Below, piece by piece: positions 5,479-33,724 of a stretch of 64,000 nucleotides of DNA. How positions within the stretch are numbered: the first letter of the stretch is position 1; each line of letters begins with the position of its first letter. Source of the stretch: Escherichia coli (lineage in GTDB: Bacteria; Pseudomonadota; Gammaproteobacteria; Enterobacterales; Enterobacteriaceae); assembly GCF_044324785.1 (NCBI RefSeq), contig NZ_CP172127.1. The stretch is one strand, 5' to 3'. The notes below the pieces were generated by a model. It had not been told where the DNA came from, searched no databases, and saw only the letters and a program-made list of their open reading frames with translations. Both the position numbers and the translations under genes were made by a program.

Positions 5479-8169
<2,691 letters not shown>

Positions 8170-8199
8170 TGTGTTTACTGATATGAAAAGAGTTTAACA

Positions 8200-9024
8200 A
8201 TGCAGCAGTTACAGAACATTATTGAAACCGCTTTTGAACGCCGTGCCGAGATCACGCCAGCCAATGCAGACACCGTTACCCGCGAAGCGGTAAATCAGGT
8301 GATCGCCCTGCTGGATTCCGGCGCACTGCGTGTGGCGGAAAAAATTGACGGTCAGTGGGTGACGCATCAGTGGTTGAAAAAGGCGGTGCTGCTCTCTTTC
8401 CGTATTAATGATAATCAGGTGATCGAAGGGGCAGAAAGCCGCTACTTCGATAAAGTGCCGATGAAATTCGCCAACTACGATGAAGCGCGTTTCCAGAAAG
8501 AAGGCTTCCGCGTTGTACCACCAGCGGCGGTACGTCAGGGTGCGTTCATTGCCCGTAACACCGTGCTGATGCCGTCTTACGTCAACATCGGCGCATATGT
8601 TGATGAAGGCACCATGGTTGATACCTGGGCGACCGTCGGTTCCTGTGCGCAGATTGGTAAAAACGTCCATCTTTCCGGTGGCGTAGGTATCGGCGGCGTG
8701 CTGGAGCCATTACAGGCGAACCCGACCATTATTGAAGATAACTGCTTCATTGGCGCGCGTTCTGAAGTGGTTGAAGGCGTAATTGTCGAAGAAGGTTCCG
8801 TCATTTCCATGGGCGTATACATCGGTCAGAGCACCCGTATTTACGACCGTGAAACCGGCGAAATCCACTACGGTCGCGTTCCGGCGGGGTCTGTGGTTGT
8901 TTCAGGTAATCTGCCGTCGAAAGATGGCAAATACAGTCTTTACTGTGCGGTTATCGTTAAGAAAGTTGACGCGAAAACTCGCGGCAAAGTCGGCATTAAC
9001 GAACTGCTGCGTACCATCGACTAA
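8200..9024 (+). CDS. dapD: 2,3,4,5-tetrahydropyridine-2,6-dicarboxylate N-succinyltransferase
   Basis: 274-aa [51 protein letters not shown]... Confidence 0.97.
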
Positions 9025-9034
9025 AAATCAGTAC

Positions 9035-9064
9035 ACGGGCAGCATGACGCTGCCCGATTTTTTG
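9035..9064 (+). terminator. Rho-independent terminator after dapD
   Basis: Hairpin gggcagc-atgac-gctgccc at 9037-9055 followed by gattttttg. Confidence 0.7.
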
Positions 9065-9076
9065 CAGGGATGGATG

Positions 9077-9889
9077 ATGATCACACGCAGGCGTTTTTTA
9101 CAGGCAGCCGCCGCGACGTTAGCTGCCGGATCAAGCCTCAGCTATATGCATTATTGGGAACCTGGCTGGCTTGAAATAACCCATCACAGCATCAGCTTTT
9201 TTAAAGACAAAGCCCTACCTTTTAAAATTCTTTTTCTGGCAGATCTCCATTACTCCCGCTTTGTTCCGCTTACCTTGTTTTCAGACGCCATTAATCATGG
9301 AGTGGCACAAAAGCCCGATTTGATTCTGCTAGGCGGCGATTACGTATTGTTTGATATGCCGCTGAATTTTTCAGCCTTCAGTGACGTACTCTCTCCCCTT
9401 GCCAAATGTGCGCCGACATTTGCCTGTTACGGCAACCACGATCGCCCCGTGAGAACGGAGAAAAATCACTTAATTGGCGAGGCGTTAAAGACGGCGGGGA
9501 TCACGGTGTTATTTAACGAAGCCACGCTTATCTCCACTCAGAAGCAGCAATTTGAACTGGTTGGCGCAGGTGATTTATGGGCCGGGCAATGTAATCCACC
9601 CGGCGTAAATGACGCGAGTCTGCCACGGCTGATGCTGGCGCATAATCCCGACAGTAAAGAACGCCTGCGCGAAGAAAAATGGGATCTAATGCTTTGCGGT
9701 CATACTCACGGCGGGCAGCTCCACGTGCCGTTAATAGGCGAACCTTTTGCGCCTGTTGCCGATAAACGCTACGTCGCCGGGTTAAATGCCTTTGGCGAGC
9801 GGCAAATTTACACCACCCGCGGCGTGGGAAATTTGCATGGCTTGCGTCTGAACTGCCGCCCGGAAGTGACGATGCTGGAACTGATTTAA
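9077..9889 (+). CDS. yaeI: metallophosphoesterase (phosphodiesterase YaeI) with twin-arginine signal
   Basis: ORF track shows a 368-aa ORF starting at 8783 that overlaps dapD; the plausible start is ATG at 9077 (MITRRRFLQAAAATLAAGSS, a Tat-type RRxFLQ motif), giving 270 aa as in K-12; has GNHD and GHTHGG phosphoesterase motifs. Confidence 0.9.
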   Translation: MITRRRFLQAAAATLAAGSSLSYMHYWEPGWLEITHHSISFFKDKALPFKILFLADLHYSRFVPLTLFSDAINHGVAQKPDLILLGGDYVLFDMPLNFSAFSDVLSPLAKCAPTFACYGNHDRPVRTEKNHLIGEALKTAGITVLFNEATLISTQKQQFELVGAGDLWAGQCNPPGVNDASLPRLMLAHNPDSKERLREEKWDLMLCGHTHGGQLHVPLIGEPFAPVADKRYVAGLNAFGERQIYTTRGVGNLHGLRLNCRPEVTMLELI

Positions 9890-9903
9890 CTGGAGATTCA
9901 ATA

Positions 9904-10614
9904 ATGGATTATTTTCTCGGCGGCTATATGTTGCTACATTGCCTGCCCGTTGAGGGGCTTCATCCGCAACTTAAAGGTAAACCACTGCTAACGTGCAGTA
10001 CCTGTTTTAATGAAAGTCTGCTTTGTGCCTGGTCTTACGCGTGGTTAGGTTCCGATAAAGACTCTCCTTATGATGGCAATATGTCACTTTACGAACATCT
10101 GGAAGCCACTTTTTTGCTTACAGACGAAGACAGGGAACAGATCCGCATCCGGGCAAATGATTGGTTCAATGAGGATAAAGTTGGCTGGGAAAGTATATTC
10201 ATGGATAAATCGACCGCTATTGAATATAAACAAAGTTTCTTTCCCCATATCGAGAATTGCTACCTTCTTGCAATCTATATCAGAGAACCGAATGTACAAG
10301 AGTTCTCCCTTTATCCATCCCATGATGGTATTGCTGCAAGGCTTCTTCGCAGGCAGCCTGAACGAAATGAAATGGATGAAAAGTTATTAGGTTACGATAT
10401 TCTGGGTCTGGAAATCGGCGGGCAGTTCCATACATCTCACTGCCATCCATTGTATAACGAACTCCACCAGCGCTTCGGTCTCACCCTCAATCAACACGGA
10501 CTTTATAACGAAATCCCGGACTGGCAACCGGTCGTGGACTATATGAACGACGACGCCACGGGATGCGAACCCGTCCCCTGGGGTATCGCCACAATAAAGC
10601 AGGTAATTTTTTGA
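9904..10614 (+). CDS. hypothetical 236-aa acidic protein of unknown function, with an N-terminal Cys cluster; not part of the K-12 gene order as I recall it
   Basis: Intact 236-aa ORF MDYFLGGYMLLHCLPVEGLHPQLKGKPLLTCSTCFNESLLCAWSYAW...; ATG 15 nt after yaeI stop with a GGAG 8 nt upstream; occupies an 844-bp yaeI-yaeH spacer that I recall as about 160 bp in K-12; appears more AT-rich than its neighbours. Confidence 0.6.
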   Translation: MDYFLGGYMLLHCLPVEGLHPQLKGKPLLTCSTCFNESLLCAWSYAWLGSDKDSPYDGNMSLYEHLEATFLLTDEDREQIRIRANDWFNEDKVGWESIFMDKSTAIEYKQSFFPHIENCYLLAIYIREPNVQEFSLYPSHDGIAARLLRRQPERNEMDEKLLGYDILGLEIGGQFHTSHCHPLYNELHQRFGLTLNQHGLYNEIPDWQPVVDYMNDDATGCEPVPWGIATIKQVIF

Positions 10615-10733
10615 TTTTTACGCCATGATAGAAGTCTGGAAGAAAAAGGCTTTCTGCGATCACAGTCGAGCCGAGCGGGCCAGGCCAAATGCTAAAATAA
10701 GCACAATTTACTGACTCATTTTGAGGTAACGCT

Positions 10734-11120
10734 ATGTACGACAATCTGAAAAGTCTGGGTATTACCAATCCTGAAGAAATTGATCGTTACAGCCTCCGGC
10801 AGGAAGCCAACAACGATATTCTGAAAATCTATTTCCAGAAAGACAAAGGCGAGTTTTTTGCCAAGAGCGTGAAATTTAAATATCCGCGTCAGCGTAAAAC
10901 GGTCGTCGCCGATGGTGTGGGTCAGGGTTATAAAGAAGTGCAGGAGATTAGCCCTAATCTTCGCTATATCATTGATGAGTTAGATCAAATCTGCCAGCGT
11001 GACCGCAGCGAAGTTGATCTTAAGCGTAAGATCCTCGACGACTTACGTCACCTGGAGTCAGTAGTAACCAATAAGATCAGCGAGATTGAAGCCGATCTGG
11101 AAAAACTGACGCGTAAATAA
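10734..11120 (+). CDS. yaeH: UPF0325 family protein YaeH
   Basis: 128-aa [45 protein letters not shown]...; GAGG upstream of the ATG. Confidence 0.93.
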
Positions 11121-11131
11121 TGCCATTCTGT

Positions 11132-11166
11132 GGGCCGGGTAAAGTCTCACCCGGCTGTAATTTTGT
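11132..11166 (+). terminator. Hairpin terminator between convergent yaeH and cdaR
   Basis: Stem gccgggt (11134-11140) / acccggc (11149-11155), then ctgtaattttgt. Confidence 0.5.
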
Positions 11167-11173
11167 CATCGAC

Positions 11174-29971: not shown

Positions 29972-32401
29972 TCACGAATACTTTTTCGTTCGTCGCGTTG
30001 GTGCTGTGTTTGCCGGGTCGTCCGGCCAGACATGTTTGGGATAACGCCCTTTCATCTCTTTTTGCACCTCACGGTACGCTCCTTTCCAGAAGGCGCTCAA
30101 ATCACGCGTGATTTGCAGCGGCCTTTGGGCAGGGGAAAGCAACTCCAGCACCAGCGGCACGCGCCCCTGAGCGATCGTCGGATTGGTGGCCTCACCAAAC
30201 ATCTCCTGCATTCTCACCGCCAGCGCGGGCGGGTTATCTTCATGATAACGAATGGCGATCCGGCTTCCCGTCGGCACAGTGTAATGCGCAGGCAATTCAC
30301 TATCCAGACGTTGCTGCATTCCCCAATCAAGTAATCCGCGTAGTGCCTGATAAATGTCGAGTGATTTCAGGCCGCGTAGTGAATGCACGCCGCTCATATG
30401 CGGCAGTAGCCACGTTTCCAGCGTCGCCAACAAACTCTCATCATCAACCGCTGGCCAGTCATATTCCGGCAACCACTTTGCGGCGCATAACAAACGCAAG
30501 CGTAGCTGTTCCGCTTCCGCCGTCCAGTTGAGCACGCTTAAACCTTTATCACGAATGCCGTTAAGCATCGCCTGATGCAACTCGTCTTCCGAGGGTTTCG
30601 CCAGCGGCTGCACTTTCACCGTCAACTGACCGATTTGCAGCCGACGCCAGGCTTTCAGCGTACCTTGCGCGTCATCCCACTCCACAGTGTCAGACTGCTG
30701 TACCAGCTGCGGACAGCGTTGTACTAACTCATCAATATCGACCGGCAGCGCCAGTAAAATCCGTGCATCCGGCGAGGCGCTGCCCTGCAATAATAACGGT
30801 GCGATCAACCATTCGTGGCGGCTTAGCGCATCGTCGGCATCGAGCATCGCCCCCATGCCGTTTGCCAGTTGATAGCGTCCATCTTGCCCACGGCGACGAG
30901 CAATGCGATCGGCATACGCCCCGGCAAGTAGCGGCGCGATAAGCGAACTGTCTGCCTCACCGCCGCGTACGTTTAAACGTTTTAACAGTTGCTGACTACG
31001 TTGCTGCCAGGCGGGTTGATTGCGCGAAAATGCCACGCCCAGGTCACAATTGCCCATCCGTGGCGGCTCTTCGAGAATAGCGGCAATTTTTGCCGCGGTA
31101 GCAGCTTCGTCGTCGCTCTTCGCGCTCACCAGCATTGCCGCTAAACGCGGATCGTTACCCAGCGCCGCCATTTTTTGCCCTTGCGCGCTTAGCCGTTCGC
31201 CATCCAGCGCTCCCAGCATCCGTAACAGGCGTTTCGCGGCCTGTAAATTCACTGCTGGCGGTTGATCCAGCCAGCTCATCTGCGCCGGATCGCTGCATCC
31301 CCATTGCAGTAATTCCATCAGCAAACCGGAAAGATCGCTTTGTAAGATCTCCGGTTCACTTTGCGCGGCAGCGCGTTCTGCTTGTTCTTTGGCGATTAAA
31401 TGCAGGCAGATACCCGGCTCCAGACGCCCGGCGCGCCCGGCACGCTGCGTCATGGATGCCTGACTAACGCGTTGAGTAATCAACCGCGTAAGCCCCGTGC
31501 GCGGATCAAAACGCGCCACACGCTCCTGGGCACAATCCACCACCAGACGAATACCTTCGATGGTTAAACTTGTTTCAGCAATATTGGTCGCCAGCACCAC
31601 TTTGCGCATTCCTTGCGGTGCCGGAAGGATCGCTTTTCGCTGATCGTTCAGCGACAACGCGCCATACAGCGGGCAGAGCAACACATCACTGCCGATGCGC
31701 GAAGCCAGTTGTTCCTGCACGCGCTGAATTTCTCCGACGCCAGGTAAAAATAACAGTAATGATCCGCTTTCCTGACGCAGCATTTCGGCGGTGGCTACCG
31801 CAACGGCTTCGTCAAAACGCTGATGCGCGGGCAGCGGTAAATAACGGCGTTCAACCGGAAACGAGCGCCCTTCTGAGATGACGACGGGCGCTTCTGGCAG
31901 CATTTGCTGCAAGCTGTCGTTGTCCAGCGTAGCCGACATAATCAGCAGTTTAAGGTCATCACGCAGACCTTGTTGCACATCGAGTAACAGCGCCAACGCC
32001 AAATCCGCCTGCAAGCTGCGCTCATGAAATTCATCAAGGATCACCAATCCAACACCGCTCAGTTCCGGGTCACGCTGGATCATGCGCGTCAGCACGCCTT
32101 CGGTAACCACTTCCAGGCGGGTATTCGGCCCGACGCAGTTTTGCGCACGCATCCGGTAGCCAACGGTATCGCCTGGCTTTTCGTTAAGCAGCTCCGCCAG
32201 TCGTTGCGCAACGTTACGCGCCGCCAAACGACGCGGCTCCAACAGGATAATTTTCCCGTTAATGCCGGGATGCGCCAGCAGTTGCAGCGGCAGCCAGGTT
32301 GATTTCCCGGCCCCGGTCGGCGCACTTAATAACACCTGCGATGCACAATCGAGAGCGGTAAGTAATTCAGGTAAGACGGCAGCAACGGGCAACGACGACA
32401 C
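29972..32401 (-). CDS. hrpB: ATP-dependent RNA helicase HrpB (DEAH box)
   Basis: ORF track 824 aa from ATG at 32446; K-12 length (809 aa) and a 73-bp spacer to thpR correspond to the GTG at 32399-32401; Walker A SAPTGAGKST and DEFHER motifs. Confidence 0.9.
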   Translation of the reverse strand: MSSLPVAAVLPELLTALDCASQVLLSAPTGAGKSTWLPLQLLAHPGINGKIILLEPRRLAARNVAQRLAELLNEKPGDTVGYRMRAQNCVGPNTRLEVVTEGVLTRMIQRDPELSGVGLVILDEFHERSLQADLALALLLDVQQGLRDDLKLLIMSATLDNDSLQQMLPEAPVVISEGRSFPVERRYLPLPAHQRFDEAVAVATAEMLRQESGSLLLFLPGVGEIQRVQEQLASRIGSDVLLCPLYGALSLNDQRKAILPAPQGMRKVVLATNIAETSLTIEGIRLVVDCAQERVARFDPRTGLTRLITQRVSQASMTQRAGRAGRLEPGICLHLIAKEQAERAAAQSEPEILQSDLSGLLMELLQWGCSDPAQMSWLDQPPAVNLQAAKRLLRMLGALDGERLSAQGQKMAALGNDPRLAAMLVSAKSDDEAATAAKIAAILEEPPRMGNCDLGVAFSRNQPAWQQRSQQLLKRLNVRGGEADSSLIAPLLAGAYADRIARRRGQDGRYQLANGMGAMLDADDALSRHEWLIAPLLLQGSASPDARILLALPVDIDELVQRCPQLVQQSDTVEWDDAQGTLKAWRRLQIGQLTVKVQPLAKPSEDELHQAMLNGIRDKGLSVLNWTAEAEQLRLRLLCAAKWLPEYDWPAVDDESLLATLETWLLPHMSGVHSLRGLKSLDIYQALRGLLDWGMQQRLDSELPAHYTVPTGSRIAIRYHEDNPPALAVRMQEMFGEATNPTIAQGRVPLVLELLSPAQRPLQITRDLSAFWKGAYREVQKEMKGRYPKHVWPDDPANTAPTRRTKKYS

Positions 32402-32474
32402 AAAACGCTCCAGAGGGTTAACATTCTTCGCGGCACATTGTAGCATCGCGGTAATTCATAACCGAGTGCCTCAC

Positions 32475-33724
<1,250 letters not shown>

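Follow-up and report, generated by a model that had tools for sequence, protein, structure and literature searches.

An Unannotated Gene between yaeI and yaeH of Escherichia coli and the Deletion Scars That Mark Its Absence

Introduction

Cys-His-Cys zinc sites occur in alcohol dehydrogenase and beta-carbonic anhydrase. A candidate center of the same composition is found in the product of the gene described here, an open reading frame (ORF) of 236 amino acids (aa) lying between yaeI and yaeH in a window of 64,000 nucleotides (nt) from Escherichia coli (contig NZ_CP172127.1, RefSeq assembly GCF_044324785.1); the window is the whole stretch of DNA that was analyzed. Two described groups of domains have to be considered alongside this product. 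DUF4253 (Pfam PF14062/InterPro IPR025349) is reported to form a trefoil knot in AlphaFold predictions and to lack a crystal structure (PMC11184937), and DUF2441 and DUF952 belong to the ADP-ribosyltransferase (ART) clan (PMC7955679). At the locus itself, the yaeI–yaeH spacer of K-12 is listed as containing a constitutive RpoD (sigma-70) promoter for yaeH (PMC3946193).

A first-pass annotation of the window, made from the sequence alone, put yaeI and yaeH about 160 bp apart in K-12 and proposed that an accessory gene had been inserted between them in this strain. The distance given for K-12 was correct: the spacer measures 844 bp in the window vs. 161 bp in a K-12-like locus (L009). The gene, too, is as it was described, namely intact, provided with a GGAG ribosome-binding site, accessory, and absent from K-12; 14 nt separate it from the stop codon of yaeI, and no library recognizes it. 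The polarity assigned to the event was wrong, however, because K-12-type and O157:H7-type genomes keep the 3′ end of this very ORF and the slot is occupied in other enterobacterial genera.

Results

The ORF is a real gene, more than a chance reading frame. A word-index search found homologs with E-values down to 1e-164 (21 clusters at E ≤ 1e-3), and an exhaustive profile search of clusters built at 50% identity raised this to 727 clusters at E ≤ 1e-3, of which 434 reach E ≤ 1e-10; nearly all have a length of 220–250 aa and align end to end. Relative to the allele of Escherichia sp. MOD1-EC7003, which is 94% identical, the ORF has accumulated 16 synonymous and 13 nonsynonymous changes. Since this closest pair of alleles gives a ratio of nonsynonymous to synonymous divergence (dN/dS) of 0.20, the gene is under purifying selection; values of about 0.05–0.19 are seen between deeper alleles. 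The AlphaFold2 model of the protein is a confidently predicted single domain (predicted local distance difference test 90, predicted template modeling score 0.89), and it superposes on the independently built AFDB models of homologs with template modeling (TM) scores of 0.85–0.94. A full-length frame is intact in every allele lineage examined. The exact protein is present on 291 contigs labeled E. coli, the longest of 5.68 Mb, and is always called a “hypothetical protein.”

This protein appears to lie outside all known families and folds. The libraries were queried with, among others, the single protein, a 22-sequence profile, and a 118-sequence profile. Pfam gave no match for the ORF protein or for any of 118 family members, NCBIfam gave none for the ORF protein, and PHROGs returned only noise (E > 0.1) for it, with no match for three homologs either. 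In PADLOC (PADLOC-DB 2.0), no family matched the ORF protein or three homologs at E ≤ 1, and ten distant members yielded noise only. Two profiles found no match among the sequences of the PDB. A Foldseek run on the 236-aa protein, a check that the first-pass annotation had suggested, found 153 relatives in AFDB50, nearly all named “Uncharacterized”; those listed come from Bacteroidota, Acinetobacter, Leptospira, Bacillus, Paenibacillus, Deinococcus, myxobacteria, and others. Four distant relatives bear automatic labels (GyrI-like, DUF2441, DUF4261, and DUF4253). By full-length profile match and by shared fold, the ORF protein belongs to a family of its own of ~230 aa (AFDB clusters named “Uncharacterized protein,” e.g., A0A5B0KE84), and the fold predicted by the model appears unlike any solved structure, with no detectable fold relative.

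The arrangements of this locus that are common in E. coli are scars left by at least two deletions, different in extent. The first-pass annotation had allowed that K-12 and all E. coli might carry the ORF. In fact, none of the 5,426 complete E. coli genomes in RefSeq has it, even by a sensitive blastn search for a hidden divergent allele. All 5,426 nonetheless match the right end of the spacer, and base-level alignment of the window with K-12-type and O157:H7-type spacers reveals the tail of the gene in both. In the K-12-type layout, the yaeI stop codon is followed by 11 unrelated nt, then by the last 31 nt of the ORF including its TGA, and then by a 119-nt spacer. The O157:H7 type (1,254 genomes) retains 51 nt, from codon C221 on, in a decayed copy with six substitutions (88% identity), and yaeI is also missing from the example examined. 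An empty site that awaited insertion would be without the gene's own 3′ end, and hence these spacers are scars of deletion. Every deletion stops short of the 119-nt segment on its right, where the yaeH promoter probably lies; selection on yaeH expression may have fixed this right-hand limit.

The O157:H7 locus has a further peculiarity. Some 109 nt of its dapD–yaeH spacer (L010, 1392–1500), which separate the dapD terminator from the decayed tail of the ORF, match no fetched allele of yaeI or of the ORF. This segment might be what is left of another allele, or of something different that once occupied the site.

Outside the complete E. coli genomes the slot is filled in several taxa. The order dapD-yaeI-ORF-yaeH-cdaR-degP is found in E. 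albertii, Pseudocitrobacter cyperus, Escherichia sp. MOD1-EC7003, and two metagenomic enterobacteria, and Enterobacter sp. kpr-6 has the ORF in the same slot with yaeI missing; four enterobacterial genera have an occupied slot. The region of the yaeI–ORF boundary is conserved in E. albertii and in MOD1-EC7003, and the ORF is polymorphic for presence and absence within both E. coli and E. albertii. Decay in relatives, which had been named in advance as a sign against a working gene, is seen in single strains: the copy of one E. albertii contig is split into pieces of 183 and 74 aa, and that of one E. coli assembly is an 80-aa fragment. These are occasional pseudogenes and are consistent with ongoing loss. 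The ORF is flanked only by short direct and inverted repeats of chance level, with no target-site duplication, and no tRNA and no integrase, transposase, or other mobility gene adjoins it, its neighbors being core genes. With no sign of mobility, with scars in place of empty sites, and with a slot already occupied elsewhere, any import of the gene would have been an allelic replacement by homologous recombination, not an insertion.

Residue conservation was counted over 118 aligned sequences of ~20%–35% identity (one at 19%; three close enterobacterial alleles are higher). The positions that stand out are G7 (113), S32 (104), C34 (109), G163 (117), D/E165 (118), G168 (113), H176 (103), C180 (113), N196 (113), G199 (111), L200 (108), E222 (109), and W226 (117). 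They define a family signature of G7-Y8, [ST]30-x-S32-x-C34, G163, D/E165, G168, H176-x3-C180, N196, G199-L200, E222, and W226, every residue of which is present in the ORF protein and each of which is conserved in 87%–100% of the alignment. C34 and C180 occur together in 109 of the 118 sequences. Among the 22 closest sequences, conservation extends to C31-x2-C34 and H176-x2-H179-C180-H181 but not to H12, C13, and C41.

These counts bear on an N-terminal cysteine cluster that was proposed earlier as a possible metal site. The pattern H12-C13-x17-C31-S-T-C34-x6-C41 is literally present in the protein, and two of its cysteines have a wider following, C34 throughout the family and C31 within the closer subfamily, but the remaining three residues drop out. 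The likely partners of C34 are H176 and C180, which that cluster did not include. Because Cys, His, Glu, and Asn stay invariant at such divergence, a functional center is to be expected here. The pattern suggests a candidate metal center of C34, H176, and C180, which we favor, with a thiol/His catalytic or redox pair as the alternative. In its general properties the protein is as the first-pass annotation described it, acidic (isoelectric point 4.8; 35 D+E vs. 17 K+R) and with no signal-like stretch; it has no transmembrane stretch either (maximum 19-residue Kyte–Doolittle value, KD19, 0.88).

The history of the block is less simple than that of its surroundings. Between the window and E. albertii, GlnD is 97%, DapD 99%, and YaeH 100% identical in aa sequence, and dS in the flanks is 0.28–0.77; the ORF, by comparison, is 58% identical, with a dN of 0.33 and a dS of 3.8, which is saturated. 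Six allele lineages of the ORF can be distinguished, and they are 55%–69% identical in every pairing, whatever the distance between their hosts. In Pseudocitrobacter and a metagenomic relative, for instance, GlnD is 97% and YaeI 90% identical, but the ORF only 65%. The divergence is concentrated in the first 160 codons (48%–59% identity), the last 76 being 68%–85% identical. When the window is compared with K-12, yaeI forms a divergence peak (80% aa identity; 73%–86% nt identity in sliding windows), and glnD, dapD, yaeH, cdaR, and degP are 99%–100% identical in aa sequence. Against MOD1-EC7003, the ORF is 94% identical and yaeI only 78%. Another E. coli (L013) has a near-identical ORF (two nonsynonymous differences, dS 0) in flanks that differ by 2%–8%. 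Since the identities of ORF, yaeI, and flanks are discordant, the yaeI and ORF block is a mosaic, made up of old haplotypes that homologous recombination has exchanged. Candidate explanations for the persistence of such deep alleles are balancing or diversifying selection and import from unsampled relatives.

The strain itself belongs to an E. coli lineage with no close relative among the 5,426 complete genomes. Over hrpB–thpR (window 30000–33000), strain N3 is 99.4% identical, the next genomes, from soil or sediment isolates, 98.9%, and most genomes 95%–99%.

Table 1. Coordinates of the ORF, its scars, and neighboring features within the window
Feature	Position	Strand	Remarks
236-aa ORF, ATG start	9904..10614	+	Unannotated ~230-aa protein family; structurally isolated predicted fold
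Segment missing in K-12-type E. coli	9890..10583	+	11 nt stand in its place after the yaeI stop codon
ORF 3′ tail retained as scar	10564..10614	+	O157-type: all 51 nt; K-12-type: last 31 nt (10584–10614)
119-nt spacer upstream of yaeH	10615..10733	+	96%–100% conserved in all E. coli
Codons T30-C31-S32-T33-C34-F35-N36	9991..10011	+	[ST]30, S32, C34 family-wide; C31 in 29/118, closer subfamily only
Codons H176-T-S-H179-C180-H181	10429..10446	+	H176, C180 near-invariant; N (59) or H (44) at position 181
Codons E222-P-V-P-W226	10567..10581	+	E222, W226 near-invariant
GGAG ribosome-binding site	9892..9895	+	Read directly from the sequence; 8 nt upstream of the ORF ATG
yaeI (metallophosphoesterase/phosphodiesterase)	9077..9889	+	Upstream gene, probable operon partner; Pfam Metallophos on orthologs
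yaeH (DUF3461)	10734..11120	+	Downstream gene; 100% aa identical to K-12
Terminator-like hairpin after dapD	9036..9056	+	Sequence scan
Terminator-like hairpin after yaeH	11133..11156	+	Sequence scan

Two smaller statements about the surroundings held in part. The other intergenic distances had been said to match K-12 to the base, which is true of glnD–dapD (30 nt) and cdaR–degP (154 nt) but not of dapD–yaeI (52 vs. 53 nt) or yaeH–cdaR (53 vs. 88 nt). The last of these, the convergent spacer at 11121–11173, is a second small indel or variable spot of the locus, 53 nt long here and 88 nt in K-12-type genomes, and sliding identity across it falls to 0.72 against K-12 and 0.63 against MOD1-EC7003. 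The GC content of the ORF (45.4%) had been called lower than that of its neighbors; this is so for yaeI, dapD, and glnD upstream (51%–54%), but not for yaeH (43.9%). Rfam gave only a sub-threshold sroE-like match (23 bits vs. a gathering score of 51, E 0.02), at 9021–9065 on the minus strand; it falls on the hairpin of the dapD terminator and is almost certainly not a small RNA gene.

Discussion

We lean, with modest confidence, toward a dispensable cytoplasmic protein with a Cys/His center that is an enzyme or a ligand binder and whose family and fold are as yet undescribed. Its ORF would be a functional but dispensable chromosomal gene that has long occupied the dapD-(yaeI)-X-yaeH slot of Enterobacteriaceae. 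At least two different deletions would have removed it from most E. coli, which would make the short K-12 spacer the derived state, and the present strain would have retained it or regained it by allelic recombination. The yaeI and ORF block would be one of several deeply diverged haplotypes that move by homologous recombination in conserved flanks, with no mobile element involved. The product is predicted to be a soluble, acidic, single-domain protein of ~27 kDa in the cytoplasm, from a widespread, patchily distributed, and unannotated family. Its presumed center of Cys34, His176, and Cys180 is most likely a site for Zn2+ or another transition metal, or else a thiol/His catalytic or redox pair; Asn196, Glu222, and Trp226 are near-invariant as well, and the enterobacterial branch may add Cys31, His179, and His181. 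Through this center the protein would bind or transform a ligand. The ORF is likely co-transcribed with yaeI and probably translated from that message: no terminator was found between yaeI, the ORF, and yaeH, and because the next hairpin on the same strand follows yaeH, yaeI-ORF(-yaeH) may form one transcript.

Several observations weigh against this reading. Nine of the 118 family members lack one or both of the cysteines, and a consensus promoter scan found no promoter inside the block. The star-like divergence of the alleles is uncommon among housekeeping-type enzymes and more in keeping with a conflict gene. Finally, the tree of the ORF is incongruent with the flanks, and ancestral residence and repeated re-import are not fully separable.

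Among the alternatives, a single-gene conflict element is the most probable, although we think it unlikely. The ORF would then encode an orphan immunity protein against an interbacterial toxin or a stand-alone factor of anti-phage defense or counter-defense, whose old alleles are kept by diversifying or balancing selection. The first-pass annotation had guessed at immunity, anti-restriction, or defense, a guess that several observations would fit. Alleles that are 55%–69% identical regardless of host relatedness, with the N-terminal part the most variable, are what a conflict gene at a fixed site might show, as are presence/absence polymorphism in two species and an acidic cytoplasmic product. 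The family is also patchily spread (Bacteroidota, Acinetobacter, Paenibacillus, myxobacteria, and Leptospira), and some of its members lie beside defense or mobile genes. In Bacteroidota the neighbors are heterogeneous, and some are of defense or toxin type. A homolog in Salinimicrobium sediminilitoris (L032, around 8001–8687) stands between a TIR protein, assigned to the candidate system PDC-S35 by PADLOC (259 bits) and to CAP12-PCTIR_TIR by Pfam, and a DUF2971/PDC-S31-like protein. An AbiH-like gene adjoins the homolog in Flagellimonas (L029), MazF-like or DUF5615/PIN-like genes adjoin others, and McrBC lies near two more (L012 and L019; 1.4 kb distance). Two distant homologs (L011 and L026) are inside apparent integrative or mobilizable elements with a relaxase, a NikA-like gene, HTH_17, and a tyrosine integrase. 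These two loci also share a divergently transcribed, unannotated neighbor, a membrane protein of 292–321 aa.

Direct support for a conflict role is another matter. Apart from the empty PADLOC and PHROG searches, the ORF protein has no Imm or SUKH match by profile or by fold, and no Pfam immunity family was hit by any of the 118 members. No homolog was found by tblastn in 50,697 phage records and 72,556 plasmids, nor among 2.9 million IMG/VR contigs. No toxin, Rhs, VgrG, Imm domain, or other partner recurs in 47 genome and three metagenome loci, and clustering of 616 neighboring ORFs from 46 loci revealed no recurrent neighbor beyond closely related genera; the ORF is without a conserved partner gene. 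Only three of 40 immediate neighbors match PADLOC or AbiH (L029 and L032), a suggestive figure from a sample too small, and with no genome-wide background rate, to show enrichment. The context is purely housekeeping in Enterobacteriaceae (glnD–dapD), where homologs follow yaeI or dapD, and in Acinetobacter (serS–cysG). In four Acinetobacter species (L039, L041, L042, and L045) the start of the homolog overlaps the cysG stop by 4 nt, downstream of serS, a conserved housekeeping arrangement that suggests translational coupling. Near-invariant Cys, His, Glu, and Asn at ~20% identity would moreover be expected in a catalytic or ligand site more than on an immunity surface, and with dS saturated, positive selection cannot be shown. 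A link to sulfur assimilation was considered on account of the cysG overlap and of cysDN/cysH-like genes upstream of the homolog in L012, but neither the related locus L019 nor any other bore it out, and the idea was dropped.

A bolder form of the conflict proposal attracts us less again. It would make the protein the first recognized member of a new class of single-protein immunity or defense factors, with an unseen and possibly knotted fold and a Cys-His-Cys metal center, whose deep alleles at one core-genome site are kept by balancing or diversifying selection and which laboratory and pathogenic E. coli have lost.

The insertion originally proposed, in which foreign cargo would have entered a K-12-like yaeI–yaeH spacer in this lineage only recently, we judge improbable. 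The lower GC content relative to the upstream genes, the absence from all complete E. coli genomes, and a yaeI and ORF block far more diverged than its flanks would be in keeping with it, and the near-identical ORF of L013 in differing flanks suggests recent transfer between strains. The scars largely refute it, however, as the K-12 and O157 spacers hold the last 31 and 51 nt of the ORF, the longer copy already decayed, and neither the occupied slots of four genera nor the lack of target-site duplications, inverted repeats, integrase, or tRNA is what an insertion would leave.

A role as accessory factor of YaeI, made from the same mRNA as a cytoplasmic chaperone, metallochaperone, or inhibitor of that Tat-signal-bearing metallophosphoesterase, seems to us quite improbable. 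The two genes are close (gaps of 11–14 nt in Escherichia, Pseudocitrobacter, and metagenome loci), with no terminator between them. Both genes are unusually divergent, and a protein with a Cys/His center would be paired with a metalloenzyme, YaeI, that begins with a twin-arginine-like RRRFLQ motif. But K-12 keeps yaeI without the ORF and Enterobacter sp. kpr-6 the ORF without yaeI, the two genes have different histories (94% identity of the ORF to MOD1-EC7003 vs. 78% of yaeI), and outside Enterobacteriaceae no metallophosphoesterase recurs as a neighbor. That the ORF is a nonfunctional relic in the course of being lost, as repeated loss and the split or truncated copies might hint, we consider very improbable indeed in view of the intact frames, dN/dS of 0.05–0.2, and a family conserved across phyla with invariant residues.

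With the dispensable Cys/His-center protein as the preferred reading, the wider interest of the locus has several sides. The family comprises hundreds of clusters in many phyla with no Pfam, NCBIfam, PHROG, or PADLOC model and no solved structure, and it is a clean target for structure determination and the discovery of function. Alleles that diverge so deeply, and independently of their hosts, at a fixed housekeeping locus form an unusual population-genetic signature, which points to a conflict function or to a recombination hot spot. Even if the function should be mundane, the ORF is a useful example of gene loss mistaken for gene gain.

Comparison with Known Systems

One AFDB protein labeled DUF4253 matches the ORF model with a TM score of 0.81, but equally similar neighbors carry three other labels, and the Pfam hidden Markov model (HMM) of DUF4253 matches neither the ORF protein nor any of the 118 members at E ≤ 0.1. 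DUF4253 is, like the ORF family, uncharacterized and without known function. A superfamily relation is possible and might be a reason for the isolation of the fold; the label may also reflect a marginal match. The lead went no further than this one Foldseek neighbor, and word-index searches started from the broad alignment and from the remotest member brought no more. For the ART clan, one AFDB neighbor is labeled DUF2441, one of the 118 members has a marginal match to DUF952 (1.4e-3), and the C-terminal third of the ORF protein has conserved His, Tyr, and Glu; membership in this clan was rejected, there being no support from HMMs or from an ART fold. The zinc sites of alcohol dehydrogenase and beta-carbonic anhydrase offer an analogy of another kind: C34, H176, and C180 together with the acidic E222 would make the pattern to be expected where a catalytic metal keeps one coordination position open, in a protein that has no sequence or fold similarity to either enzyme.

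Orphan immunity genes of polymorphic-toxin, contact-dependent inhibition, and type VI secretion systems (SUKH/Imm) likewise have small, acidic, cytoplasmic products of patchy distribution, and they likewise combine presence/absence polymorphism with extremely divergent alleles at one chromosomal site. Unlike the immunity genes of polymorphic toxins, the ORF is neither beside a cognate toxin nor in an immunity-gene array.

The closest comparison is with the K-12 locus itself. The right-hand 150 nt of the K-12 yaeI–yaeH intergenic region are homologous to window 10584–10733, at 98% identity. That spacer is noncoding in K-12, whereas in the window the first 31 nt of the same stretch are the last ten codons and the stop codon of the ORF. 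Hence, the K-12 yaeI–yaeH intergenic region is a scar that a lost gene has left behind, which corrects, in a small but concrete way, how the reference locus is read.

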